Below, piece by piece: positions 1,009-39,783 of a stretch of DNA of 64,000 nt. The stretch lies in assembly GCA_963812155.1 (NCBI GenBank), contig CAWETW010000001.1, positions 288,001 to 352,000 on the forward strand. The letters run 5' to 3'. The notes beneath the pieces are model-generated. The model ran no database searches and was not told where the DNA came from. It saw only the letters and a list, made by a program, of their open reading frames with translations. Origin of the DNA: Vulcanimicrobiota bacterium. GTDB taxonomy: Bacteria; Vulcanimicrobiota; Vulcanimicrobiia; Vulcanimicrobiales; Vulcanimicrobiaceae. The position numbers were made by a program, and so were the translations under genes. Position 1 is the stretch's first letter. Each line of letters opens with the position of its first letter.

Positions 1009-2503
1009 CGGCGCTTGGGTCCTGTTTGCACTCGTCCTCGCGGTCTGCGTCCTGGGATTTCTGGGCCGCCGATGGGGGAACGCGAACCTCACGGAGATCG
1101 ACGAATGGGCGCTGGGCGGCCGGCGGTTCGGAACGCTCCTGTCGTGGTTTCTGGTGGGCGGCGACATTTACACCGCGTACACGTTCGTTGCCGTCCCGGC
1201 GCTCGTCTACGGGATCGGCGCGCTGGGCTTTTTCCCGCTCTCGCTCAACTTTGTGGCCTATCCGGTTGCGTTCATCTTCCTCGTGCGCTTTTGGGGCATC
1301 GCGCGGCGCCGAGGTTACGTTACCGGCGCCGATTTCGTGCGCGACCGCTTCGGCGACCGCACGCTCGAAATCGCGGTGGCGCTCACCGGCGCGATCGCGC
1401 TCATGCCGTACATCGCGCTGCAGCTCGTCGGCATGCAGGCAGTGTTCGCGCAACTGGGCGGCATCTTCGCGATCGACAAGAGCATGCCGGCGCTCACGAT
1501 CGCCTTCGTGCTGGTCGCCGCCAACACGTACGTCAGCGGCTTGCGTGCGCCGGCGCTGATCGCCGTCGTAAAGGACACCCTCATCTACGTCACCGTGATC
1601 GTCGCCATCACGGTGATCCCGGCCAAACTCGGCGGCTGGCCGCACATCTTCGCTTCGGTGCAGACGGTGCTCGCCGCGCGCCCGAAGCCGGCGTCGGTGC
1701 TGCTCGCGCCGCCGCAATACTTCACCTATGCGACGATGGCGATCGGTTCGGGCATCGCGCTCTTTCTCTATCCAAGTTCGATTACGACCATTCTGGCCGC
1801 GAGCAGTAAGGACGTGTTGCGCCGCAATGCGGTGCTACTGCCGATCTACACGCTGCTCCTCGGATTCCTGGCACTGCTCGGCTACTGCGCGATCGCCTCG
1901 GGAATCACCGTCGCGCACGGCAGCAGCAGCGTCATCCCGCTGCTCTTCGCTCGTTATTTTCCCGGATGGTTCGCCGGCGTGGCGGGTGCCGCCATCGTGA
2001 TCGGCGCGCTCGTGCCGGCCACGATCATGTGCATCGGGGCGGCCAATCTGCTGGCCAGCAACGTCGTGCGCGAGTTCTCGGCCGATCGGAAACCACTGGC
2101 CGTCGGTGCGGTGAAAGGGTTCACGCTGCTGATGAGCGCCGGCGGCCTTCTGTTCGTTTTCTTTTTTCCGGTGACGTTCGCCATCGATTTTCAACTCCTC
2201 GGCGGCTCGCTGATCGTCCAGACGTTTCCGGCCTTTGCCTTGGGACTCTTCACGCGCTGGTTCCATCCCCGCGCGCTGCTTGCGGGATGGGCGGTCGGGA
2301 TCGCCGCAAGTTGCGCGATGGCCTACGCCGCCGGTTTCGCCTCGACGTTCACGATCGACATCTTCGGCGCGCATCTCAACGGATTCATCGCCGTCTACAG
2401 TCTGGTCGCGAACCTCGCGGTCGCAGTCGCCGCGACGCTGCTCTTCCGCGTCTTCGGCGTGCCGGCGGGCAACGACCGGACGCTCGCGGGAGACTACGCG
2501 TGA
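1001..2503 (+). CDS. Sodium:solute symporter (MctP/YhjB-like monocarboxylate transporter)
   Basis: EWALGGRRFG...WFLVGGDIYTAYTF motif, about 13 TMs; ATG at 1001. Confidence 0.9.
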   Translation: MSSGAWVLFALVLAVCVLGFLGRRWGNANLTEIDEWALGGRRFGTLLSWFLVGGDIYTAYTFVAVPALVYGIGALGFFPLSLNFVAYPVAFIFLVRFWGIARRRGYVTGADFVRDRFGDRTLEIAVALTGAIALMPYIALQLVGMQAVFAQLGGIFAIDKSMPALTIAFVLVAANTYVSGLRAPALIAVVKDTLIYVTVIVAITVIPAKLGGWPHIFASVQTVLAARPKPASVLLAPPQYFTYATMAIGSGIALFLYPSSITTILAASSKDVLRRNAVLLPIYTLLLGFLALLGYCAIASGITVAHGSSSVIPLLFARYFPGWFAGVAGAAIVIGALVPATIMCIGAANLLASNVVREFSADRKPLAVGAVKGFTLLMSAGGLLFVFFFPVTFAIDFQLLGGSLIVQTFPAFALGLFTRWFHPRALLAGWAVGIAASCAMAYAAGFASTFTIDIFGAHLNGFIAVYSLVANLAVAVAATLLFRVFGVPAGNDRTLAGDYA

Positions 2504-2892
2504 GCGAGACGGTCAATCCGCCGCAGTGGCCGCGTCCGAGCGGGTACGCCAACGGCATCGTCGCGCAAGGACGGTTCTTAGCCGTATCCGGACAGATCGG
2601 CTGGAACGAACGGGCCGAGCTCGCCGGGGACGATTTTCTGACGCAGGCCCTGCAGGCGCTGCGCAACGTCGTTGCGGTCGTTCGCGCCGCGGGCGGCGAG
2701 CCCGCGCACGTCGTGCGCTTGACGTGGTACGTCGTCGACACCGACGAGTACCGCGCCGCACTGGCGGGATTGGGACGCGGATACCGCGAGATCTTCGGCG
2801 ATCACTATCCGGCGATGGCGCTCGTATGCGTCGCCGGATTGCTCGAAGCGGGGGCGCGAGTCGAGATCGAAGCGACGGCGATTCTTCCTTGA
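2500..2892 (+). CDS. RidA/YjgF family enamine deaminase (AbmF-like)
   Basis: PPQWPRPSGYANG...SGQIG...HYPAMALV...VEIEATA; GTG overlaps the upstream TGA. Confidence 0.9.
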   Translation: MSETVNPPQWPRPSGYANGIVAQGRFLAVSGQIGWNERAELAGDDFLTQALQALRNVVAVVRAAGGEPAHVVRLTWYVVDTDEYRAALAGLGRGYREIFGDHYPAMALVCVAGLLEAGARVEIEATAILP

Positions 2893-2902
2893 ACGCGCGT
2901 CC

Positions 2903-3566
2903 GTGCCGTTAGAAATCGATCATCTCATCATCTGCTGCGATCGCGGCGCTCCCGAAGGGAAAGCGCTGATCGCGCACGGCCTGCTCGAAGGCTCGTCGAA
3001 CGTGCACGCGGGGCAAGGCAGCGCGAACCGGCGCTTCTTCTTCGAAAACGCGTATCTCGAACTCTTATGGATCGACGATCCTGCTGCGGCCAAACGCGAG
3101 CCCGCACGCCGCACGCGCCTGTGGGAACGCTGGCGGCGGCGCGACGCGTCGGCGTGTCCTTTCGGGATCGCATTTCGTCCGCTCGACCCCGCGGCCGAAA
3201 CGTTGCCGCCGTTTCCGACGTGGGCGTATCACGCGCCGTACCTGCCGGCGCAAGTGTCGATCGGCATCGCATTGGCGACGCCGCTGAGCGAGCCGGAGTT
3301 CCTGTACCTTCCGTTTGCCACGCGACCCGATGCCAAAGGTCGCGAGCCAATCGCGCATCCCGCCGGCCTGCGCCAATTGACCGGCGTGCGCATCGGACTT
3401 CCGCCGAGCACCATGCGCTCGCAAGCCGGCGCAAGCGGTTGCCGGTCTCGGATTGCTCGCGTGGTTCGATGCGCCGGCATACGTGATGGAGTTGACGTTC
3501 GGCGAGGGTGCGGCCGGGCGCAGCATCGACTTTCGCCCGGTGCTACCTCTGCTCGTTCATCGGTAG
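2903..3566 (+). CDS. VOC/glyoxalase-like family protein (frameshift near 3428)
   Basis: IDHLII...HAGQGSANRRFFFENAYLELLW; plausible C-terminus AQAVAGLGLLAWFDAPAYVMELTF...[12 protein letters not shown] lies in another frame ending at 3566. Confidence 0.75.
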
Positions 3567-5192
3567 CGGCTCCCCCGCAGCACGCGAGCGCAGTTTGTAA
3601 CGCTGCAGTTTGCCGGTTTCGGTACGCGGCAGTTCGGCGACGAACTCGATCTCGCGGGGCGTCTTGAACGGTGCGATGCGTTCGTTGCAAAACGCCTGCA
3701 GTTCGCGAACCTTCGTCTCCCCGGGCGCAGCTGCACCGTCGAGCACGACGAAAGCCTTGACGATCTGCGTCTGCTTCTCCGCATGCGCCTTGCCGACGAC
3801 GGCAACTTCTTTGACGTCGGCGTGCGCGATGAGGACTTGCTCCACTTCCGGGCCCGAAATGTTGTATCCGGCCGACACGATCATGTCGTCGGTGCGCGCG
3901 ACGTACCAGAGGTACCCGTCCGCGTCGGCCCGATAGGCGTCGCCCGGATAGTTCCAGCCGTTCTGCACGTAGCTGTGCTGGCGCTCGTCGTCGAGGTATT
4001 TACACCCCGTCGGCCCTTTGACGGCTAATCGTCCGACGCTGCCTTCGGGCACTGGACGGCCGTCCTCGCCGTGAACTTCGGCAACGTAACCGGGAACCGC
4101 GCGGCCGGTCGCGCCCGGACGAATTTCCGGCTCGGGCGAACCGACGAAGATGTGGAGCATCTCGGTGCTGCCGATACCGTCGAGAATCTTCAACCCGGTC
4201 TTATCGCGCCACGCCTCCCACACCGCCAACGGAAGCGTCTCGCCGGCCGAGACGCACGAGCGCAGCGTCGAAAGATCGTACCGATCGGCGGCGGCGCACA
4301 TCGTGCGATAGGCGATCGGCGCGGTAAATGCCGTGGTCGCACCGTACTCGGCGACGGCGCGCAGTAAGTCTTCCGGCCCGGCTTTCTCCAACTGCAGCGT
4401 CGCGGCGCCCACGGAAAACGGAAAGAGCACGTGACCGCCCAGACCGAACGTAAATCCAAGCGGAGCGCTGCCGCAAAAGAGATCGCTCGGCCGCGGCTGC
4501 AACACGCGCGCGCCGTAACTGTCGCAGGTGGCCAGAATATCGCGATGATAGTGCATCGCCGCCTTGGGCTTTCCGGTCGTTCCCGAGGTGAAGGCGATCA
4601 GGGCGACGTCCTCGGCCGCCGTCGCAACGGCTTGGAACGCATCCGGTTGCCGCGCCATCGCCGCTTCCAGCTCGGAGTCGCCCTCGGAACCGAACGTCAC
4701 GGTGGCGATGCCCTCGGCTCCATCGCAGGCCTTCGAGAGGTCATCGAACAGCCGGACGTCGCACAGCGCGAGCGTCACGCGCGCCTTTTCGAGAATGACG
4801 CGAAGTTCGGTCGAGCGGTAGAGCGGCATCGTGGTGACCGCAATGCCGCCCGCTTTCAGGACCGCCAGCCAGCAGGCAACGAGCATCGGCGTATTCGGCG
4901 CGCGCAAGAGCACGCGGTTTCCCGGGCGCAGACCGTAGCGCACCGTGAGCGCGTTGGCGATCCGGTTCACCGTCTCGAAGAGCCGGCGGTACGTCCAACT
5001 GACGCCGCCGGGCGCGACGATGCAGCGCCGTTCGCCGTTGCCGATCTCGAGATTGCGGTCGAGCAGCCAGGCCGCCGCGTTGATGCTTTCGGGATACGGC
5101 GTTTCCGCAAGCGTGAAGAGCTGTTCCGGCATCGCGTCGCGCGCCGGCAAGTGGCGTTCGGCGAATTCGTCGACGTGACCGGTATGCTTCAC
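3543..5192 (-). CDS. Benzoate/2-aminobenzoate-CoA ligase family (AbmG-like)
   Basis: AMP-binding motifs [36 protein letters not shown] at 5192 overlaps the upstream stop. Confidence 0.9.
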
Positions 5193-6349
5193 GGCGCGGG
5201 AACGCGTGCCAGCATCTGCTTGGCGATGACTTGCTGCTGGATCTCGCTGGCGCCTTCGTAAATGCGCAGCGCGCGTACGTCGCGATAGAGCCTCTCGACG
5301 ATCTCGCCCCGCGTCACCCCGCGCCCTCCGAAGAGCTGCACGGCACGGTCGCAAATGCGCCCGGCCGCTTCGGTGGCAAACCACTTTGCCATCGCCGCTT
5401 CGGCGGTGACCCGCGCCGCGCCCGAATCTTTCGTCCACGCCGCGCGATACACCAGGAGCGCGGCCGCGTCGGCATCGGTCGCCATGCCGGCGATGGCCGC
5501 CTGCGTCAGCTGCAGCGACGCCAGCGGCGCGCCGAACAGTTTTCGGGAGCTCACGTGCGCGAGGGTTTCGTCGAGCGCGCGGCGCGCGAATCCGACCGCG
5601 GCGGCGCCCACCGTACTGCGGAAAACGTCGAGCACCGACATCGCGACTTTGAACCCTTCGCCTTCTTCACCGATCCGTTGCGACGCGGGGACGCGAACGC
5701 CGTCGAACCGCAGCGTCCCCAGCGGATGCGGTGAGATCGTTTCGATTCGCTCCGAAACGACAAGGCCGGCAGCGTCTGCCTCCACGACGAACGCGGACAG
5801 GCCGCGCGTACCGGCCGCGCCCGTTCGCGCGAACACGACGTAGAAATCCGCCAAGCCGGCATTCGAGATCCACGTCTTCTCGCCATCGAGCACGTAGGCG
5901 TCGCCGTCGCGGGCGGCGCGGCTGGCGATCGCCGCGACGTCGGACCCGGCCTCCCGTTCCGAGAGCGCAAACGCTGCAATCGCCCGGCCTTGCGCGACCG
6001 CCGGAAGAAAGCGCCGCTGCAACTCCGCCGATCCAAAGAGCGTCAGCGCCCCGCTGCCGAGACCCTGCATCGCAAATGCGAAGTCGGCAAACGCGCTGCG
6101 GTAGGCGAGCGCTTCGCGCGCGAGACAGAGCGTCCGCACGTCGAGCGCGGTGCGCACGCCGCCGTAGAAATCGGTAACGCAGGCGCGCAGGATGCCGGCG
6201 CCGGCGAGCTCGCGCACCCATGCGCGGCAACTTGCGTCGGCATCGTGCTCGTCGTCGAGCGCGCCGGCGCTTTTAGCAAACCCTTCGACCAGCGCCGCGA
6301 ACGCGCGGTGCTCCTCATCGAAAAACGGCCACGCCAGCGCGCCGTTCAA
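5189..6349 (-). CDS. Acyl-CoA dehydrogenase (AbmD-like)
   Basis: [42 protein letters not shown] start coupled to the hydratase stop. Confidence 0.9.
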
Positions 6350-7137
6350 TTCCCTTCGAACTCCGGTGCGCGCTTCGCAGCGAACGCTTCGTAGGCGCGG
6401 CGGAAGTCGCTCGACTGCATGCACTCCGCCTGGGCTCGCGCTTCCGCATCGATGGCTTCGTCGAGCGGAAGCGCCCACTCGCGATGCAGCATGCGTTTGG
6501 TCGTGGCATGCGCGAGCGTCGGGCCGCTCGCGATCGCCGCCGCCCACGCTCGCGCGCGCGCGAGCAGATCGGCGGGCTCGCAGAGTTCGTTGTAAAATCC
6601 CCACTCCAGTGCGCGCTCGCCGGGCATCGCCTCACCCGTGTAGAGCAGCTGCGACGCGCGTCCGAGCCCGACGATGCGCGGCAACATCGCGCACGCCCCC
6701 ATGTCGGCGCCCGACAAGCCCACGCGCACGAACAGAAAGGCCACCTTCGAACGGCGCGTGCCGAAGCGGATGTCGGAAGCCATCGCCAAAATCGCGCCGG
6801 CGCCGGCGCAGGTTCCGTCGATCGCCGCAACGATCGGCTGCGGACACGCACGCATCGCCTTGACGAGATCGCCGGTCATCTGCGTGAACTCGAGGAGCTC
6901 TTGGGGCGTAGCGCCCGTCAGCGGACCGATGATGTCGTGCACGTCGCCGCCGGAACAGAAGTGTTCGCCGGCGCCCGTCAGCACGATCGCCGCGACCGTT
7001 GGGTCGTGCCGTCGTTGCCCGAACCAGTCGCGCAACTCCGCGTACAGCGCGAACGTCAGCGGATTGCGCCGTTCGGGCCGATCGAGCGTCACGGTCGCGA
7101 CGCGACCGGCCATTTCGTAACGCGCTTGCGTGGACAC
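6346..7137 (-). CDS. Enoyl-CoA hydratase/isomerase (AbmC-like)
   Basis: [28 protein letters not shown] crotonase motifs. Confidence 0.9.
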
Positions 7138-7148
7138 TGCCCAACCCT

Positions 7149-7589
7149 TTATCGAATTTGAAACGGAAGGTCCTGTTCGAACTCGATTCCGGCGCTGTTA
7201 CGGGCGATCACCCGCAGGCGATAGGGCCGGATGAAGATCGGCGGTGCGTCGAGGACGTCGAGCTGGAACGCAAAACGGCCGGCTCCGGTGTGCGGCACGT
7301 CGATAGAGAACAAGTTCGTGCGCACCTCGATGCTGGCGACGTTCGTGCTCGTGACGAACTCACCCGAAAAACGTTCGCCCCGGCGCACGTCGAGCGACGA
7401 GAAGTGCATGCCGAGAATTTGCGGCAGCGCATCTCGCGATGCGACGCGCGGCGTCGGTAACGCGCGCGTCGCGCCGATCTCGACGCCGGCCGGCACGCCG
7501 GGAAGATGTGACGCACAACCGAGCGCAGCCGCCACGAACGCGAGTGCGGCGGCTCCGAACATCGCCGGACGTGCGCCGGACGCGTGCAT
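7149..7589 (-). CDS. Hypothetical lipoprotein with Ig-like beta domain
   Basis: Hydrophobic stretch and lipobox-like [16 protein letters not shown]...LRVIARN; start uncertain. Confidence 0.65.
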
Positions 7590-7668
7590 CACGCAAGTGA
7601 GGTAGCGGCACGGCGACGGTTTTCCTGCCGCAGAGGGCGCTCCCGCCGCTTGCGCGTAAGGCCATCCC

Positions 7669-8710
7669 ATGCACGGCGTCCGGACCGCTCCTCGCAGTGT
7701 TGCGTTCGATTATGCCGTGGGCGCGTGTTGCGTTTGGGTTTCCGGCGGTTTCTTTCTCGACGCGTGGGCGCACGGCCACGTGCCCGTCGAATCGTTCTTC
7801 ACGCCGTATCACGCGGCATTTTACTCGGGCATGCTTGCGCTCATGCTCGTCTTCGCCGGATTTGCGGCGCGCAACCACAACCGCGGGTATGCCTGGGGCG
7901 ACGCTCTTCCGCGGCCGTATCGCGTCGCACTCATCGGCATTCCGATTTTCATCGGCGCCGCTTTCGGCGACATGCTGTGGCACCGGCTGCTCGGACTCGA
8001 GGAAGGCGTCGACGCACTCTTGAGCCCGACCCATCAAATTCTCGGGCTCGGCATTTTCTTTCTCGCCAGCGGCCCGATCCGCAGCGTGCTCGCCGACCGG
8101 GCGCGCTCGACGACGCTGGCGCTGCAGGCGCCGCTCGCGCTCGGCCTGGCGACGTGGCTGCTTGCTGGCGCACTTCGGCACCGCTTACGCGATCGATCCC
8201 GCCGGCGGCCGCAGCGACGCACCGCCGCCGATCGCGCCGTTCACGCCCGACTATCTCACGGCGCTGAGCATCGGCTATTACAAAGTCTCGGTCGGCGTGC
8301 TCGTCATGATTTTCCAGAGCGCGCTGATCGGCGGCTTCGCGATCTGGACCGTATCGCGACTTCGTCCCGCGCCCGGCATGTTCACGCTGCTCTACGTCGT
8401 AGGCGGGCTTCCGCCGGCGGCCGCCTTCACCAACCATTCGAACCTGCTCGCCGTCGCCGCGGCGCAAGCGCTGCTGACCGGCATCGTCGCCGACGTCTTC
8501 GTTGCCCGGCGCGATCCGCGTCCCGAACGCGTCGCAGTCTTTCGTACGTTTGCAGCGACGGTTCCGATGACGTACTGCGGCGTCTACTTGGTCGTGACGG
8601 CACTGCGCGGCGGCTTGTGGTGGGATTGGAACATCGCATTGGGCACGTGGCTGTGGTCGGGCGTCGTGGGCTACGTGCTCAGCCTGCTGGCGTCCGCGCG
8701 CCGGGCGTGA
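7669..8710 (+). CDS. Multi-pass membrane protein of unknown function (frameshift near 8162)
   Basis: LDAWAH...ESFFTPYH...DMLWH...E..DALLSPTH; C-terminal half is in ORF 8162-8710. Confidence 0.7.
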
Positions 8711-10236
8711 CGCCGGCTCGCACGCTGCCGGTCTGCGCGGCGCTGCTGCACCTCGCGACGTCGTGGCGTTACGGCTACTTTCGCGACGAACTCTACTTTA
8801 TCGCCTGCGCCAAACATCTCGCGTGGGGATACGTCGACCAGCCGCCTTTCGTTGCGCTGGCGGCATGGCTTTCCGCGCCGGCGGGTTACCATCTCGTCGC
8901 ATTGCGCCTGCTGCCGGCGCTGGCGGCCGGCGCGACCGTCTACGTCGCGATTGCACTCGCGCGAGAACTCGGCGGCGGACGGTACGCGGCGCTCCTCACG
9001 GGCATCGCGACGATGCTGCTCCCGGCATACTTGCTGCTCGGCAACGTGTTGACGACGACGTCGTTCGAGCCGCTGTCGTGGACGCTGACGATCTACGCCG
9101 CGCTGCGAATCGTTCGCGCACGTTCCGAAAACGCACGCCGCTGGTGGCTGCTGCTCGCGGGCGCGCTCGTCTTCGGAGCGTACGGCAAGTATTCGATCGG
9201 GCTGCTCGCCGCCGCGCTGGTCGCCGGCACGTTGCTGACGCCGCAACGGCGCGCGCTCGCGTCGCCGTGGCCGTGGGCGGTTGCCGGCATCGTGGGGCTG
9301 TGTCTCCTTCCCAATCTCGTGTGGCAAGGCGCGCACGGCTGGCCCTTCGTCGAGGTGCTGCGCGGCGACGCGACGCACCGCCCTGCGCTCCAAATCGGGG
9401 CCGCACTGGAGTTCACGGATCTCGCGCGCAATGCCGCGGCCTTCATCCTGGAACAGGTGGTGTATACGAACGTTTTTGCGGTTCCGATCTGGATTGCCGG
9501 GATCGTCGCGCCGTTTCGGGTGAGCGCGCTGCGCGATCTGCGCTTCGTGCCGATTGCCTATGCCCTAGTCGCCGTTACGGCGGTGGCATTGGGCGCCAAA
9601 GGCTACTACGTCATCGGCATCTACGCGTCGCTCGTCGCGATCGGAGCGGTCGCGCTGGAGCGCGCGGCCGCGGCCTGGCGCGTTGCACTACCGTCGGCAC
9701 TGCTGCTGACGGCCGCTGTGGCGTTACCGCTGTCGTTGCCGATCCTGCCGGTCGACGGGCTGATCGCCTATTCGCAACGGCTCGGTTTGACGGGCCGGGG
9801 CGGGACGCCGCCGCATCTCGTGCAGCCGGTCTTCGCCGAAGAGTTCGGCTGGGAACGATTGGCGCGTGACGTCGCCGCCGTCTACCGGTCTCTGCCGCCG
9901 CGCGTGCGAGCGGAGACGGCGGTGTATGCCGACACCTACGGCGACGCCGGAGCGCTCGATTTCTACGGTCCGCGCTTCGGATTACCACCCGTCATCTCGA
10001 GTCAAAATTCGTACTATCTCTGGGGCACGCGCGGCTACGACGGGCGCACGATGGTGGCGGTCGGGGCGACGCGCATCGATCTGTTGCGCGCGTTCTATCG
10101 CCACGTGACGCTGGTGCGCACCTCGAGCGAACCCTACAAGTGGATCGTCGAAGGGCCGGCGCCGATCTATCTCTGCCGCGACCCCGTCGCGCCGCTGACG
10201 ACGATCTGGCCGCATTTGCGCTGGTACGGCGCCTAA
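8707..10236 (+). CDS. Glycosyltransferase family 39 / ArnT-like GT-C protein
   Basis: YGYFRDELYFIACAKHLAWGYVDQPP signature, many TMs; GTG overlaps the upstream TGA. Confidence 0.85.
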   Translation: MTPARTLPVCAALLHLATSWRYGYFRDELYFIACAKHLAWGYVDQPPFVALAAWLSAPAGYHLVALRLLPALAAGATVYVAIALARELGGGRYAALLTGIATMLLPAYLLLGNVLTTTSFEPLSWTLTIYAALRIVRARSENARRWWLLLAGALVFGAYGKYSIGLLAAALVAGTLLTPQRRALASPWPWAVAGIVGLCLLPNLVWQGAHGWPFVEVLRGDATHRPALQIGAALEFTDLARNAAAFILEQVVYTNVFAVPIWIAGIVAPFRVSALRDLRFVPIAYALVAVTAVALGAKGYYVIGIYASLVAIGAVALERAAAAWRVALPSALLLTAAVALPLSLPILPVDGLIAYSQRLGLTGRGGTPPHLVQPVFAEEFGWERLARDVAAVYRSLPPRVRAETAVYADTYGDAGALDFYGPRFGLPPVISSQNSYYLWGTRGYDGRTMVAVGATRIDLLRAFYRHVTLVRTSSEPYKWIVEGPAPIYLCRDPVAPLTTIWPHLRWYGA

Positions 10237-27673: not shown

Positions 27674-28129
27674 CTACGCCGCTCGCAAAGGGGACCGCCA
27701 GCGCGAGACCCGCTGTCCGCAAACCAGCGACGCCTGTTCGATGCTTTCCAAGGGGTGGATCATCATGCAGACGCCGGCCGCTGCAAGTTCCGCGTCCATC
27801 CGAGCATCCGGCGACCAACGGGCGAACAGGTGGATTTCCGGCGTCCCGGCCGCCCGGGCGACCTGGCCGATCACCTCGGCAAGGGAGCATTCGCGCCGTT
27901 CCAAGAGCGGCTCGACCACGGCCTCGCGGAAGTACCGGCGGCTTGATCCCGAGATCATCGCGATGATCCGGGAGAGCTCGGCCGGATCGGCCGCCTCGAA
28001 GTCGATGATGGCTGCCTTCACGATCTCGGCGAGACGCCGGTCGGTCTGCGCGTGAAGCGTTGCGCCGGCGATCGACGCCTCGGGCCCGGCCGTCAGGAGC
28101 GCTCCAGCCCCAATCAAATACTCGTCCAT
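27674..28129 (-). CDS. Hypothetical protein
   Basis: GGGAG SD before ATG 28129; globular-looking composition, no family recognised. Confidence 0.55.
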   Translation of the reverse strand: MDEYLIGAGALLTAGPEASIAGATLHAQTDRRLAEIVKAAIIDFEAADPAELSRIIAMISGSSRRYFREAVVEPLLERRECSLAEVIGQVARAAGTPEIHLFARWSPDARMDAELAAAGVCMMIHPLESIEQASLVCGQRVSRWRSPLRAA

Positions 28130-28186
28130 ACTCCCAGTTTGGGACCCAAGAGTGCCAACTGGCTGGCTTTCAAGTTCTGAGGGCAC

Positions 28187-28217
28187 AAAAATAGAGGCGC
28201 CGCAGATGCGGCGCCTC
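28187..28217 (-). terminator. Rho-independent terminator
   Basis: Perfect 10-bp stem GAGGCGCCGC/GCGGCGCCTC followed on the minus strand by TATTTTT. Confidence 0.75.
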
Positions 28218-28354
28218 CCGCCCACAACCCGGTTTGTGGAGGTTCCCGTGCCGTCGATGGGCCGGTACGGGAGAGCTGAGAGCCCGGGTTGTTTCGCTCG
28301 GGTGTGGGCACTCGAGCCTTTCCTTAGCAGTAGATCGTTAGGGCTTGTAACGCC

Positions 28355-28426
28355 TCACGCGATGAGCGTGGGTGGCGTCACGATGCTTACGATCAGCCCT
28401 AAGAGCATGAGGAGCATGTGATGCAT
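28355..28426 (-). CDS. Unannotated 23-aa hydrophobic peptide MHHMLLMLLGLIVSIVTPPTLIA
   Basis: GGAGG SD at 28436-28440, 9 nt before ATG; hydrophobic core; lies between the LuxR stop and a terminator. Confidence 0.6.
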   Translation of the reverse strand: MHHMLLMLLGLIVSIVTPPTLIA

Positions 28427-28492
28427 AGTTGCCAACCTCCCAAGAAACGGTGAACATGGGCCTAGGTTAGCCCGTATAGCCTCGTCAGGTCC

Positions 28493-28510
28493 CTAGGTCA
28501 AATTACCTAG
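28493..28510. promoter_or_regulatory. Candidate operator palindrome CTAGGT-N6-ACCTAG
   Basis: Perfect 6-bp-arm inverted repeat; another CCTAGGT half-site at about 28461. Confidence 0.45.
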
Positions 28511-31014
28511 TCCAGAATGCCGGCGCGCCGGCTCAGAACGAGCGCTTGGACACGACCGTTGCAACGCAGTTTCGAGATCACGTTGCCGATGTGGTTTCTG
28601 ATTGTTTTCACTGTACAGTTCCGACGAAACGCGATCTCTTTTGGGCTGAGTCCTTCTGCCAATAACCGAATTGTCGCTATCTCTGCTGCAGTTAGCTGTT
28701 CTCCGGTTGATCGCTTCGTCTTCGCGCTCAAAGCAGCAAATGTCGCCCGCAGCAATCGAGTCAAATGCGCATAGCCCAATGGTTCCAGCCGATCGAGTAA
28801 AGGTGCGCCCGTCTCGATCGTTGCCATATCGCTGGAACGTATTTTTGAAACGGTTTCAACGCCGATACGCCTGATAAGCGCCGTGACCGGGTCATCTGTG
28901 TCCGTTCCAATTCGCCCACAAATGCGTTCAGCGTGAGCGAGCCTACCATTTGCTGCTTCGGCTAACGCGCAGCAAAGTAGAGCCGTCGCAACGGATCTAT
29001 GCGAAAAAGGACCTTCAGTCGTAAGCCCTGCCGTAAGACAAAGTATCTCTTCCGTCAAGGTTACAGATGCCGCACGTTTATCATCAATTGCTAAGAAGAG
29101 CGCACACTCTGCGCCGGAAACGACGCGATCAATATCGTGATGAAGCATGCGCCATGAACCGGCCAGCAAGCGGTGTGCCTCTGCAAACTTACCCTCCCAG
29201 GCGAGCCTAAGGGCCGCGGGCGGTACGAGATAGTGGCTCCGGGACTGGTCTCTAGCCTTTGCGCTAGCCAAGCGATGCTCAATATCGACGCTTTGCTGTA
29301 GATTTCCACAACGCAACTCTGCAACGAGTAATTGTAACATTGACGTTTCTATATCGAACGCATCTCCAGCCTTGTTCGCCTCTTCAGCCGCCTTTTGTGC
29401 GTACCAGAGTTGCCATTCGACATCATCGAATGCGTGAAGCATGAGATTAGAAAGGTTGGCATATGCCCTGCTCGCCAAACTAAACAACTCCAGCTCGCTC
29501 GCGAGTTCTGCGGCTTGTGAGAGGAGCTTTCTAGCCGAGCCGTTCTCGCCGACGTACATTGCGGCAACGCCCAAACGCTGGAACACCTTTGCACGAACCG
29601 AATCCGGTTCCAACCTGCGAAGAATCGCTTTTACCCTCCGCATCGCCTGCATTGCTGCGCCACGCTGTCCTGATCGCGCGAAGTGGGCGGTCAGTATTGA
29701 AAGCGCTTCCGCTCTTTGAGCGGCCGATTGGCGCCTATCAAGCGAAATGGGATTTAGTAGCTCCGTTATGTCTTCACCCCGATTTGCCATTAGAAGTGCA
29801 AGCCTGAACGTAGCAGTCGCGACGAGCTCGCGGTCGTTTTTGGCGTGAGCAATTGAACGACGTAAGAGCGCTTCGGCGCGGACGGGTTTACCGGCCAGGG
29901 ATTGCAGAACGCCACGAAGCGCAAGTATGCGCGGATTCGTGCGGCGCGAGGGTTCATCCAGCGCCACAACGGCATTGGAAACGCATTCCGCGCGCCCGCG
30001 CTCCAGCAGATCGAAGCCGCTCGTTTCCAGAATACGGAGAAGGTCGGGCTGCGATCGCGCAGGTCCGTACGTGATGAGTGCGGCTTCCATCTGTCCGGCG
30101 GATTCGAGCGCTTTTGCCGCCCGGAGGTTAACCGCGGCATACCGGTGACTGCCGGCGAGAGCCGTCTGACGGCGCAAGAAATCGCGAACGATGGTTGACG
30201 TGCGAAAGCGACGATTCTCCTCAAAGAGAAGCCCCGTATGCTTTCGCGTCACTTCCAAGGTTTGCAAGGCGTCGGGAAATCCGGCGATCTCGAGTATGCC
30301 GGCGTCTATTTCGGGCAGAGCGGCCGCGACCTCGAGCAACTCGCGCTCGCGGTCGCCCAGCACCGGATAAACTTGATCGCGCAGATAGTCCATCGCGGTT
30401 TCCCGAACGAACGTCCGAACGTCGCGCTTTGCCATTCCGCTCTTCAGCGCTCTGACGGCTATTGCGACGGCTGCCGGCCAGCCCTCGGTAAGGGCGGCGA
30501 TTTCAGCGATGTCATCGGCTTCAAACCCTACACCCGAAAGACGGCACGCCTCCGCAATTTCCTCATCGGTGAAGCGCAAATCGCAAACGCCGATCGGCAA
30601 TTCGCAGTTGCCTTGCGCGAGCCACGTGCCCACCGGCAGCGCGTCAACCGCTCGCGTCGCGACCACCCAACGCGCTTGTACGTTTTCAGCGATGAGCTCA
30701 ACCAGGCCGCGAGCCGTTTCGGCGGAAGCCCGCTCGAATGCGTCGACGACGACGGTGCCGCGAAACTGTTTCGAGATAACCGATGTGTCGAACGCTTCGT
30801 TCGTCACGTCGATGGCGATCGTTTCTTCGGAATGTTGGGCGAGATACTGTTGCAGCGCTATCGACTTGCCGTAACCGGCAGATGCAGCAACCAATACGAT
30901 CCGCCGCTCACTCGCTTTGGCGAACCGCTCGACCACTCGCGGGCGCGCCACGATCTCGGCATCGATTCTGCTTTCCCGAAACGACGATGCACCTCGATCT
31001 GAAATCGAACGCAT
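28507..31014 (-). CDS. MalT-like ATP-dependent LuxR-family regulator (AAA + TPR-like + HTH)
   Basis: Walker A ASAGYGKS, LRFTDEE, EGWPAAV, helical TPR-like middle, C-terminal LTAAE...GLSPKEIA...KTIRNHIGNVISKL. Confidence 0.88.
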   Translation of the reverse strand: MRSISDRGASSFRESRIDAEIVARPRVVERFAKASERRIVLVAASAGYGKSIALQQYLAQHSEETIAIDVTNEAFDTSVISKQFRGTVVVDAFERASAETARGLVELIAENVQARWVVATRAVDALPVGTWLAQGNCELPIGVCDLRFTDEEIAEACRLSGVGFEADDIAEIAALTEGWPAAVAIAVRALKSGMAKRDVRTFVRETAMDYLRDQVYPVLGDRERELLEVAAALPEIDAGILEIAGFPDALQTLEVTRKHTGLLFEENRRFRTSTIVRDFLRRQTALAGSHRYAAVNLRAAKALESAGQMEAALITYGPARSQPDLLRILETSGFDLLERGRAECVSNAVVALDEPSRRTNPRILALRGVLQSLAGKPVRAEALLRRSIAHAKNDRELVATATFRLALLMANRGEDITELLNPISLDRRQSAAQRAEALSILTAHFARSGQRGAAMQAMRRVKAILRRLEPDSVRAKVFQRLGVAAMYVGENGSARKLLSQAAELASELELFSLASRAYANLSNLMLHAFDDVEWQLWYAQKAAEEANKAGDAFDIETSMLQLLVAELRCGNLQQSVDIEHRLASAKARDQSRSHYLVPPAALRLAWEGKFAEAHRLLAGSWRMLHHDIDRVVSGAECALFLAIDDKRAASVTLTEEILCLTAGLTTEGPFSHRSVATALLCCALAEAANGRLAHAERICGRIGTDTDDPVTALIRRIGVETVSKIRSSDMATIETGAPLLDRLEPLGYAHLTRLLRATFAALSAKTKRSTGEQLTAAEIATIRLLAEGLSPKEIAFRRNCTVKTIRNHIGNVISKLRCNGRVQALVLSRRAGILD

Positions 31015-37192: not shown

Positions 37193-38110
37193 ATGCCCAC
37201 TCTTACGATCAATTACGTTTATTTCGGCGCGTCCGGGGCGCACACGCGCCAGCCGCGCGTCGTCAGCTCTTACGGCGGATTCACGCCCATCCCGGGTCTT
37301 AATCCCGGCGGCACCGCGACGCTGATGGCGGGAACGCCATATGAGCCCGGTTATCCGCCCGACCTCGACTCACAACACCTCGCTTACGCGTTCACGAACG
37401 TCTCCGGCTGTTTGGAGGGTCCGCGCACGTCGTACGTCGCGACCATGCTTCCTCCGGTCGGCACAGTTGGTAGCAATCCGATCGTCGTCAACTACGTCTA
37501 CGTTCCCACCGGCCATAACGGAAACGGCGGAACCGGCGCCGTCATCGATGCGTTCGACGCGAGCATCAACTCGCTGATCGATAACAACTTCGTAACGTGC
37601 ACTCCGGATCCGGGCGGCACCATCACGACCGAAGCGAACGTCGACGGTTGGGTGGATACGTCAAGCTCAGGACGCACCATCACTGCAGACCATCCGAATA
37701 TCGGAGGCTATGGAACGTGGTCGACCCTCCCGCTCTTCGATCGCTGGGTCGATCTCACCGATCCCGCGCCGCCATCGTCGCTGATTAGCGGTGCCAATCT
37801 TACGCCCGGACAAGGCGCCACCGTCTACGCACTCGCGTTCTATCACGATCCGATAAAAACCAAAGAGCACAAGGAGTACTTAGAAAAGAATCCGGCCGAG
37901 TACCTGAAGTCGATAGCCGAATACTTCAAGGGGCCGAAGGAATCGGTCGAAAATCCCGGATTCGGCAACATCGGCGATCCCGCGGAGGTGATCGGCGAGT
38001 TACGGACGCTCACCGTGCGGCTTGCCGGACTCGAGGCGCGCCTCGAGGCGTTCGGCTCGGCATTCATCAAAGCCGAAGACCGGCCGCAAACCCGGAAGCA
38101 GCAGCGGTAA
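37193..38110 (+). CDS. Hypothetical protein with beta-rich body and Lys/Glu-rich C-terminal tail (candidate ATP-grasp substrate)
   Basis: SD-like AAGGTAGG; tail KTKEHKEYLEK...FKGPKE, coiled coil, AFIKAEDRP. Confidence 0.8.
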   Translation: MPTLTINYVYFGASGAHTRQPRVVSSYGGFTPIPGLNPGGTATLMAGTPYEPGYPPDLDSQHLAYAFTNVSGCLEGPRTSYVATMLPPVGTVGSNPIVVNYVYVPTGHNGNGGTGAVIDAFDASINSLIDNNFVTCTPDPGGTITTEANVDGWVDTSSSGRTITADHPNIGGYGTWSTLPLFDRWVDLTDPAPPSSLISGANLTPGQGATVYALAFYHDPIKTKEHKEYLEKNPAEYLKSIAEYFKGPKESVENPGFGNIGDPAEVIGELRTLTVRLAGLEARLEAFGSAFIKAEDRPQTRKQQR

Positions 38111-38128
38111 CAGTGAGCGCGAGGAGCG

Positions 38129-38833
38129 TTGTTCCTCGTCCTTAGCAACTTGGCCAACGAGGCGGCGCGAGAAATGGTGGAGACGTTTCCACCTGGCGCC
38201 GCCTCGCTGGTCACCGCTTCCGAACTCGATCGTTCGTTTAAAGCGTCCGTTCGGTTCGGCGATTTTTCGTCCGCGACGTTGACGATCGACGGCGTCGAGA
38301 CGTCGCCACGCCAGGTCGAAGGCGTCGTTTCGACGATTGCCTATTTCCTGCCGCAAGAGTTTTACTACGTCGAGCCCGCCGATCGCGAGTATGTGCGAAG
38401 CGAAACCACGGCCTTCTTCATCTACTTCCTCTCGCAGCTTGCGTGCCCGAAACTCAATCCGCCGACGGCCAAGACGCTTTGCGGCTTGGGCATGCATCGC
38501 ATCGAATGGATGCGGGGCGCGCGTAACGCCGGCGTTCCGTTGCAGCGGGTGCGGACTCACGACGGACAAACGACGTACGACGATGTGCCGGATGCGAGGC
38601 AACGCGTGCGCGCGACGTGCATCGGCGACGCGATCGTCGAAGACCGCGTCCCCGACGCGGTTCGAGCGCACCTGCTAGCGCTATCCGAGGCCTTTCGAAT
38701 GCCGTACCTGTGCGCCGATTTCATTGCACCCGGCGACGGCGACTACCGCCTGGCCGATCTGTGGTCGGTTCCCGACGTCCGCGTCCCGGCAAATCGCGCG
38801 GCAATCGTGCGCTTCATGCGGGGCCGGCCGTGA
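38129..38833 (+). CDS. Degenerate ATP-grasp-like protein
   Basis: GAGGAG SD + TTG; DREYVRSE..AF...LNPP, but no FQE or EVN motifs; coupled to the next gene. Confidence 0.65.
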   Translation: MFLVLSNLANEAAREMVETFPPGAASLVTASELDRSFKASVRFGDFSSATLTIDGVETSPRQVEGVVSTIAYFLPQEFYYVEPADREYVRSETTAFFIYFLSQLACPKLNPPTAKTLCGLGMHRIEWMRGARNAGVPLQRVRTHDGQTTYDDVPDARQRVRATCIGDAIVEDRVPDAVRAHLLALSEAFRMPYLCADFIAPGDGDYRLADLWSVPDVRVPANRAAIVRFMRGRP

Positions 38834-39783
38834 TTTTGCTTTGGGGCTCAATGACGGACGAGCCGATGGTGATGGCACGCGCCGCATTGTTGCAGGCGGG
38901 CTACGAGCCGGCCTTTCTAGATCACGAAAAGGTCTTTACCTCGGTGCTTGATTGTGAAATCGACGACGCAGGCAGCCGCTGCACGGTGACCGCCGGCGAG
39001 GCGGTGGTCGAGATGGCGGCGGTCTCGGTTGCCTATGTGCGCGGCGCGAACTTCTACGACTACGACGAGATGCGCGACCTGCCACGCGATGCGCCTCTCG
39101 CGCAACGGGCAGCCGCGTTCGAAATGCAGTTGATGGCATGGCTCGACGCCTCGGATGCGGTCGTCATCAATAAATCGGGCCCCGCGGCGGCGAACAATTC
39201 CAAGCCCTATCAGCTGACGGCGGTCCGCAATGCCGGGTTTCACGTTCCAGAGACCTTCCTTACCAACGACCCCGCCGCCGCGCGCGCGTTCGTGTCGGCA
39301 CGTCGCGACGTCATCTACAAGTCCATCAGCGGAACCCGGAGCATCGTGCGCCCGCTCGACGAACGACAACGCGCCTTTCTCGACGACGTAAAGTGGTGTC
39401 CGACGTGTTTTCAGGAGCGACTTACCGGAATGAACTATCGCGTCCACGTGATCGGCGATCGCGTTCTCGCGCTTCGCATCGAATCCGACCAACTCGATTA
39501 TCGCTATGGCAACACCCGAATGGCGGAGACCGAGTTGCCCGACGACATCGCGCAGCGCTGCCGAGACATGACCGGCGCGATGGGACTGCATTTCTCCGGT
39601 ATCGACCTCATGCAGACCCGCGACGGCGAGTGGTTCTGCTTCGAAGTGAATCCGTCACCGGCGTTTTCCTACTTCGAGGCGGCCTCCGGACAGCCGATCG
39701 CCGCGGCACTGGCCCGGTTCCTGCTGGACCAACTCGCGCGCGCTGAAGATGCGGCGGCAAAGCGCGCGCTCCAGACCCACTAA
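38830..39783 (+). CDS. ATP-grasp ligase, RimK/MvdC-D (graspetide maturase)-like
   Basis: NNSKPYQL..GFHVPETFLTNDP, YKSISG, FQE..G..YRVHVIG, DYRY, FSGIDL, FEVNPSP. Confidence 0.88.
   Translation: MILLWGSMTDEPMVMARAALLQAGYEPAFLDHEKVFTSVLDCEIDDAGSRCTVTAGEAVVEMAAVSVAYVRGANFYDYDEMRDLPRDAPLAQRAAAFEMQLMAWLDASDAVVINKSGPAAANNSKPYQLTAVRNAGFHVPETFLTNDPAAARAFVSARRDVIYKSISGTRSIVRPLDERQRAFLDDVKWCPTCFQERLTGMNYRVHVIGDRVLALRIESDQLDYRYGNTRMAETELPDDIAQRCRDMTGAMGLHFSGIDLMQTRDGEWFCFEVNPSPAFSYFEAASGQPIAAALARFLLDQLARAEDAAAKRALQTH

Follow-up and report, generated by a model that had tools for sequence, protein, structure and literature searches.

A candidate peptide-signalling cassette on a STAND–TPR–LuxR scaffold in the Vulcanimicrobiota

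In a stretch of 64,000 nucleotides from a Vulcanimicrobiota bacterium (assembly GCA_963812155.1, contig CAWETW010000001.1, positions 288,001 to 352,000 of the forward strand; hereafter the window), a gene for a 23-residue peptide follows that of an 835-residue regulator composed of a STAND-type NTPase, a tetratricopeptide repeat (TPR) sensor and a LuxR-type helix-turn-helix (HTH) domain. An earlier note, made from the letters of this DNA, had proposed that the two form a peptide-sensing module on a STAND–TPR–LuxR scaffold. The genomic evidence supports this idea: the peptide is conserved, is under purifying selection and has moved together with the TPR half of the regulator. The analysis establishes that the small gene is coding and conserved, that its promoter has a common architecture, that the locus is a mosaic and that the proline-rich tail of the peptide recurs as a module. 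We consider it likely that the tail, once secreted, processed and re-imported, acts on the TPR sensor with autoinduction of its own gene.

The peptide gene, its regulator and their conservation

The peptide gene lies on the minus strand at 28355..28426, with its ATG at 28426 and its stop codon ending at 28355, and starts 80 nt beyond the stop codon of the regulator. As the earlier note had read it, a Shine–Dalgarno (SD) sequence GGAGG (28436..28440) stands 9 nt before the ATG on the same strand; the SD of locus L002 reads GAAGG, and an alternative in-frame TTG start in the window would give a 26-residue product. The encoded peptide, MHHMLLMLLGLIVSIVTPPTLIA, has a hydrophobic core and a Pro-rich tail. 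Comparison of the window with L004 reveals 14 synonymous changes and one non-synonymous change in the peptide codons, and that of L003 with L007 reveals 16 and one, respectively. Over 22 disjoint peptide pairs, changes at codon positions 1, 2 and 3 number 97, 73 and 189, corresponding to 131 synonymous and 136 non-synonymous codons. The synonymous excess between the window and L004, together with the third-position bias over the 22 pairs, demonstrates that the 23-residue gene is real, coding and under purifying selection. The sole residue change between the window and L004, S14A, immediately precedes IVTPPTLIA. The prediction of this fragment as the mature peptide, made in the earlier note, therefore fits the genomic data.

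Over 90 curated loci the peptides are 19–68 residues long; 69 of the 90 have PP within the last 11 residues, and 13 precursors contain a lipobox-like motif. Most of the 84 short precursors include an uncharged stretch of 14–20 residues. The peptide of L150 seems to start at ATT.

The regulator gene (28507..31014, minus strand) encodes the STAND-type NTPase, a helical arm, the TPR sensor (about residues 290–770) and the C-terminal LuxR/GerE HTH. This order of nucleotide-binding oligomerization domain (NOD), arm, TPR and LuxR domain, recognized earlier as MalT-type, is borne out by Pfam, the predicted structure, Foldseek and the MalT hidden Markov model. Pfam detects the GerE/LuxR HTH (E 6e-11) and, weakly and below cut-off, AAA_22/nSTAND; with the window regulator alone as query it finds no TPR. 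The NCBIfam MalT model scores 88 bits (E 4e-25) against a curated cut-off of 537, and thus stays below the equivalog threshold. The predicted structure (predicted local distance difference test, pLDDT, 87) begins with an NTPase fold, which is followed by a long stretch of helical repeats and by the HTH; its best Foldseek matches are 6mfv, a TPR-sensor STAND protein, and 8bob, from the MalT system. A profile of the TPR region matches the TPRs of Pins, LGN and KLC at E 2e-7, and RapF weakly (E 0.02). The Walker A motif is ASAGYGKS (APAGYGKS in the family). L143 represents a 91%-identical relative. The TPR region of L121, whose precursor has 36 residues, is 34% identical to that of the window.

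The regulator family is present in 272 of 296 f1 genomes, four of five f2 genomes and 5 of 30 f3 genomes, and in none of the 69 other genomes searched. We examined downstream DNA for the best-scoring regulator matches among 453. The resulting set of 115 regulators leaves out nine duplicates, any loci that lacked the HTH or scored below 150, three STAND-HD loci and two loci with less than 250 nt. An SD-led, hydrophobic open reading frame (ORF) of 18–70 residues with Pro among the last nine, a definition framed after inspection of those loci, occurs 3' of 85 of the 115 regulators. As background, the same definition picks out 13 of 956 long genes in the own genome, the window ORF being among the 13, and 94 of 5750 shuffles. 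A conserved small ORF behind homologous regulators, as expected in the earlier note, is thus found, and the opposite outcome, that none is conserved, did not arise. Among 23 metagenome loci fetched later, 18 have such an ORF; of these 23, L151 and L158 duplicate genome loci, and L164 and L165 are identical.

The 30 regulators without such an ORF are heterogeneous. Five are followed by clear peptides that fall short of one clause of the definition (three leaderless, one without Pro, one with a distant SD). Others include L063, where the repeat is threefold, L026, a lipoprotein locus from the unpublished genome G022 that none of our conclusions relies on, the divergent L014, L017 with its broken regulator and the distant L050, as well as four repeat-bearing protease lipoproteins, five NHL lipoproteins and three loci with operator and RNA only. 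The remaining eight, all in g23, lack both operator and peptide.

A search for related loci with the single regulator protein as query gave three, one of them a true relative. A search of representative proteins returned 21,743 at E<=1e-30 in a listing without gene context, hence the spread of the peptide was judged within the phylum. A plasmid search using the TPR region gave no match, and the TPR profile produced two weak partial matches in five class-level genomes, both in 1060-residue proteins. A loose sequence-pattern search matched as frequently as its control and was uninformative.

The tail itself recurs in several settings. L036 and L063 contain three tandem copies of it, and five lipobox precursors end in it. 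In four lipoproteins behind paralogous regulators, the tether carries Pro-Gly repeats. From their motifs we take these four to be S53-like; Pfam assigned them no family. In three of eight g23 genomes with a peptide-less regulator, the same core is found as a stand-alone gene. G138 and G191 have a 20-residue peptide gene elsewhere in the genome, and G153 (L188) has a 63-residue precursor with no hydrophobic core, an acidic leader and two copies of DAVTPPDPF. The L188 leader matched no leader model in Pfam or NCBIfam. A C39-peptidase ABC exporter was found in G153 only, among five genomes tested, and long C39 proteins of that kind occur in 11 of 151 family genomes; being one case, this pairing of precursor and exporter provides mild support. 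The tail would thus seem to be the functional unit. Moreover, its tandem, lipoprotein, coreless and stand-alone forms argue against both a cis-acting leader and a purely membrane-anchored role.

Promoter architecture and joint exchange of TPR half and peptide

De novo motif discovery in the DNA preceding the peptides yielded an 18-bp palindrome, CTAGT-N8-ACTAG, followed by AGAC or GGAC. Palindromy averages 6.8 of 9 pairs over 75 sites, and TANNNT lies 18 or 19 nt downstream in all 75 high-scoring sites (of 85, the 10 low-scoring ones being excluded). In the leaderless peptides of L090, L093 and L098 the ATG is 6 nt past this box, which fixes TANNNT as the -10 element and places the centre of the palindrome at -43.5 or -44.5. 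A centre near -44 is presumably that of a class II activator site. In the window, the candidate operator CTAGGT-N6-ACCTAG with its GGAC (28489..28510, minus strand) overlaps the regulator stop codon, and the -10 box TAACCT (28464..28469, minus strand) follows 19 nt past the motif. When scored with a matrix built without the window and L002, the window site is the top-scoring one in its own genome. We infer that the LuxR HTH of the regulator binds the palindrome.

Within genus g1, the window (L001) and L003 form one group over the N-terminal 393 residues of the regulator, and L004 and L006 form the other. Starting at residue 399, the window instead joins L004 and L005, all with the tail PPTLIA, whereas L003 joins L006, with the tail PPGPxG. 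Comparison of four loci makes the switch explicit: up to residue 390, 56 of 60 sites pair L001 with L003 against L004 with L006, and beyond it 39 of 40 pair L001 with L004 (PPTLIA) against L003 with L006 (PPGPxG). Trees of the two regulator halves are incongruent with bootstrap values of 99–100. Peptide DNA identity follows the second grouping (75% versus 58%), while the 3' RNA (82% versus 69%) and the next gene (74% versus 67%) revert to the first; the next-gene entry for L031 is left out of the data. Because the groupings switch at about residue 390 and revert past the peptide, the C-terminal TPR half, the HTH and the peptide have moved between genomes as one bounded block, the exchange tract ending just past the peptide stop. 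Allele-specific residues cluster at positions 518–567 (14 of 26). In the window, GC content at 28500–29500, the TPR/HTH half of the regulator, is 48–56% compared with 63–64% genome-wide, in line with an exchanged block.

The co-variation of the peptide tail with the TPR region, anticipated in the earlier note, is also found. Over 83 full-length pairs, the partial correlation (rho) of tail distance is 0.36 with TPR distance and 0.02 with NTPase distance, and that of the hydrophobic head with TPR distance is -0.03. When the TPR-nearest and the NTPase-nearest locus are compared, the tail is nearer to that of the former in 21 of 30 cases, and the head in 17 of 30. Shuffles within clades give rho values of 0.24–0.32 and reach the observed one in 1, 4 and 0 of 300, so that an excess survives them.

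Proposed mechanism and its alternatives

According to the mechanism that we favour, the small gene would encode a pro-peptide, the hydrophobic part of which would route the precursor into or across the membrane. The precursor would then be cut to a Pro-rich tail of 7–10 residues, here approximately IVTPPTLIA, and the tail re-imported, perhaps via an oligopeptide ABC system; the 13 family-5 solute-binding proteins of the own genome, which are common, offer weak support. Binding of the tail to the TPR sensor of the adjoining regulator would release autoinhibition, by analogy with maltotriose in MalT, and the LuxR HTH would occupy the conserved site near -44 and activate the peptide promoter, giving positive feedback. 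The same transcript would hold the output: in most lineages an HD-GYP gene of the cyclic-dinucleotide phosphodiesterase type, and in the genus of the window a structured 3' RNA. The gene after the 90 curated peptides has an HD-GYP motif in 62 cases, is a degenerate HD_5 gene in five, a gene for a 151-residue protein of no known family in 22 and is truncated in one; the HD gene is at most 60 nt from the peptide in 52 of 66 loci. Joint exchange of the TPR half and the peptide would generate specificity groups. Whether all this amounts to family-wide peptide quorum sensing in diderm Eremiobacterota is, in our judgement, evenly balanced. Such a system would use an NLR-like STAND ATPase as receptor for a self-made peptide, with exchangeable specificity cassettes, at least three export tags (a bare hydrophobic leader, a lipoprotein or protease tether, a C39-type leader) and an output of cyclic di-GMP breakdown or an RNAIII-like dual-function RNA.

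A number of observations weigh against this mechanism. Most of the correlation between tail and TPR region is due to shared ancestry, and physical linkage alone could move the TPR half and the peptide together. None of the 84 short precursors contains Lys or Arg, and since the basic n-region is absent, canonical Sec export is doubtful; L157 is a 13-residue form with neither hydrophobic core nor leader. In the window regulator Walker B reads VDAFE versus IDDLH in the family, and the NTPase domain is shortened. The operator scan of the own genome yielded 12 sites above 12 bits with a -10 box at the window site only; no second operator of this kind was found, and hence no sign of a wider regulon. 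The operator is missing from the stand-alone peptide genes and has been lost at eight g23 loci that keep the peptide, and in the other five of the eight g23 genomes mentioned above the regulator is intact and the search found no peptide. Three loci of genus g1 (L009–L011) likewise have an intact regulator and no peptide, with the operator and an RNA-like element kept. Finally, what lies behind five paralogues is an NHL-repeat lipoprotein without a clear motif.

In one alternative the peptide is a cell-autonomous modulator. It would sit in the inner membrane of its producer, and its cytoplasmic tail would bind the TPR region and tether or inhibit the regulator in negative feedback, with no cell-to-cell step; MalT itself is under the control of MalK and MalY. 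The uncharged stretches and the lack of positive charges in the precursors suit such a peptide, the co-variation fits any direct contact, and the peptide gene lies under the regulator's candidate operator. We nevertheless regard it as unlikely, since the lipobox precursors and protease lipoproteins would expose the tail beyond the cytoplasm, L188 duplicates the core motif although it is devoid of a hydrophobic core, and tandem copies suit the release of multiple mature peptides. It is also rather improbable that the peptide is simply an output, a small peptide with a separate function in the membrane or after secretion, induced when the regulator senses some other small molecule and co-varying by linkage. 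The operator directly upstream of the peptide, the unrelated lipoproteins behind paralogues, the regulators that persist without a peptide and a single exchange tract carrying both are all compatible with that idea. Against it, the PPDP core has been kept in g23 although the gene left the locus and lost the operator, the exchange tract stops just past the peptide stop, and the tail, not the head, tracks the TPR region after within-clade shuffles.

The frequency of PP near the stop codon and the short distance to the HD gene also invite a third reading, in which ribosomes stalled at Pro-Pro would govern, in cis, either read-through or the translation of the gene that follows; the window sequence also allows an alternative pairing that might overlap the 5' arm of the terminator. 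Such a leader is very improbable given the stand-alone copies without a coupled gene, the internal repeats and lipoprotein forms, and the tails that diversify with the TPR region. Moreover, the gene behind the peptide in the window is preceded by a motif of its own, which persists without the peptide. Finally, the good conservation of the 3' RNA within the genus could point to a chance ORF inside a regulatory RNA, a reading of negligible probability that is refuted by the synonymous bias and by the recurrence behind homologous regulators across the family, compared with a background of 1.4–1.6%.

Related systems and surrounding features

Cytoplasmic peptide–TPR signalling has been described for Firmicutes, where RRNPP systems display autoinduction and specificity groups; STAND regulators sense sugars or phage proteins. 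RRNPP criteria, as given in an excerpt of the source, comprise a small propeptide of 10–100 residues, adjacency, a TPR receptor, a receptor size of 250–500 residues and a Sec signal or SHP/PptAB export (PMC10075063). The window locus displays three of these five (a 23-residue propeptide, an 80-nt gap and a TPR receptor) and departs in receptor size, having 835 residues with a STAND NTPase and a C-terminal GerE HTH. As in Rgg/SHP, PlcR/PapR, NprR/NprX and Rap/Phr, on the excerpted description, a small pro-peptide adjoins a cytoplasmic TPR receptor, and the precursor is short, hydrophobic and SHP-like. In contrast to RRNPP receptors, with 250–500 residues and an N-terminal HTH, those of the cassette have 835–890 residues, a STAND NTPase and a C-terminal LuxR HTH; their precursors are devoid of Lys and Arg, and the TPR similarity to RapF is weak. 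As proposed here, the cassette works like an RRNPP system, yet it is outside RRNPP membership.

With LuxR and the lux box, which lies near -42.5, the cassette shares a palindromic operator that adjoins the -35 region in the promoter of the signal gene; it differs in that it has no autoinducer-binding domain or synthase and uses a TPR sensor. Staphylococcal agr RNAIII is a quorum-induced transcript that combines an ORF for a short peptide with structured RNA whose C-rich loops resemble anti-SD sequences. The cassette would likewise unite a small ORF and a folded RNA with C-rich loops on one transcript, but its RNA has no sequence or Rfam match and is restricted to one genus. Enterococcal pheromones derive from lipoprotein signals, and double-glycine-leader peptides are another known export type. 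Both resemble the cassette, whose signal core also comes with differing export tags, either in lipoprotein precursors or behind an acidic leader in a genome that has a C39 exporter, except that the core of the cassette follows the lipobox rather than lying inside the signal.

The order NOD–arm–TPR sensor–LuxR HTH is common to the window regulator, MalT, the PH0952-type protein 6mfv, AfsR and GutR. MalT is induced by maltotriose, according to an excerpt of PMC6468293, and the excerpted literature describes no adjacent cognate peptide for MalT-type activators. By contrast, the proposed target of the cassette regulators is a peptide/HD-GYP or peptide/RNA transcript, and the window regulator scores far under the MalT cut-off. 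The available part of the main text of a 2026 STAND survey mentions none of LuxR, quorum and Eremiobacter (PMC13581612), and full-text literature searches, in which subscription journals are thinly covered and supplements excluded, returned no description of the cassette. RRNPP_detector tables are unlikely to hold it because they are limited to Firmicutes and to receptors of at most 500 residues. The conserved cassette is apparently undescribed and would bring peptide signalling to a STAND scaffold. If the proposed mechanism is true, both fields would be joined by a STAND receptor that reads a peptide secreted by the cell itself, in a Gram-negative phylum of soils; the single cultured member of this phylum is Gram-negative according to the part of PMC9758169 available. 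About 100 natural receptor–peptide pairs, with allele swaps within one genus, would open STAND–TPR ligand specificity to assays with inexpensive synthetic peptides. Ligands of orphan MalT-like regulators, which are many, could as a rule be sought in the unannotated 100 nt 3' of the gene.

The structured RNA occupies 28191..28317 on the minus strand and consists of a small hairpin (28317–28296), a stem, a symmetric C-rich internal loop of 11–12 nt with ACCUCCAC, an inner hairpin and the terminator. It is delineated by folding (z = -4.87 for 28180–28470), by pair changes (7 of 25 pairs with double-sided change) and by a model, R1. R1 recovers the held-out L146 at 88 bits and matches 8 of 15 genus genomes, seven of which, with the own genome, supplied training sequences. 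Rfam gave no match at 28190–28350 even at E 5, and a scan for anti-SD targets with the second loop returned generic SD matches only. The element is possibly a 3'-derived regulatory RNA. The earlier note had mentioned neither this RNA nor the operator and promoter, nor the HD-GYP output gene of most relatives. At L009–L011 and L166, the operator and -10 box are present without a peptide and are followed by a different hairpin-rich, C-rich element not matched by R1. The strong terminator noticed earlier is indeed present at 28187..28218 (stem 28218–28193 plus a T run, minus strand); it lies about 140 nt 3' of the peptide stop, and its stem is invariant in eight genus loci.

The next gene on the minus strand encodes a 151-residue protein (28129–27674, within 27674..28167) without Pfam match above cut-off or any NCBIfam or Atlas match, and has its own upstream motif, GCCA-N6-TGGCAC, at 28167–28152. 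Gene and motif are conserved upstream of an OmpR-type two-component pair and are retained at loci that lost peptide and operator; the gene is probably a syntenic neighbour outside the cassette. We rejected the idea that TGGCAC belongs to a sigma-54 promoter, since its GG–GC spacing, where present, is 11 and not the 10 of sigma-54 promoters.

Several related loci differ in their output. The paralogous subfamily L052, L037–L039 and L045, with NHL-repeat lipoproteins downstream, has a motif of its own, approximately CCTAAAGTGGTCATGG, after the stop codon. L025, L035, L040–L042, L044, L048 and L049 encode STAND–TPR proteins without HTH that overlap or are fused to HD-GYP genes, and appear to be the same sensor with an enzymatic output. 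A second cassette in the own genome (L051; G000:C3, minus strand) comprises a distant STAND–TPR–LuxR regulator (7269–9641), a 28-residue peptide ending in PPYLPNP (7003–7086) and an HD_5 gene (6187–6993); the operator matrix has no match there. On the plus strand of G000:C3, locus L173 holds an ORF of 47–50 residues (2045–2197) with a hydrophobic start and two DTPGGP repeats, directly upstream of a gene for a 490-residue protein with helical repeats and a LuxR HTH (2328–3800) and no NTPase match. This pair adjoins a polysaccharide export gene and looks like a third, differently built peptide–regulator pair in the own genome. In assembly G011 (L005/L032, L031), both peptide types are found behind regulators with a common N-terminus, two of them on short contigs, which may reflect a strain mixture. 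Elsewhere in the window, at 37193–39783 on the plus strand, a gene for a 305-residue protein of no known family precedes a pair of genes, of which one encodes a RimK-like ATP-grasp domain; together they may be a peptide-modifying cluster.

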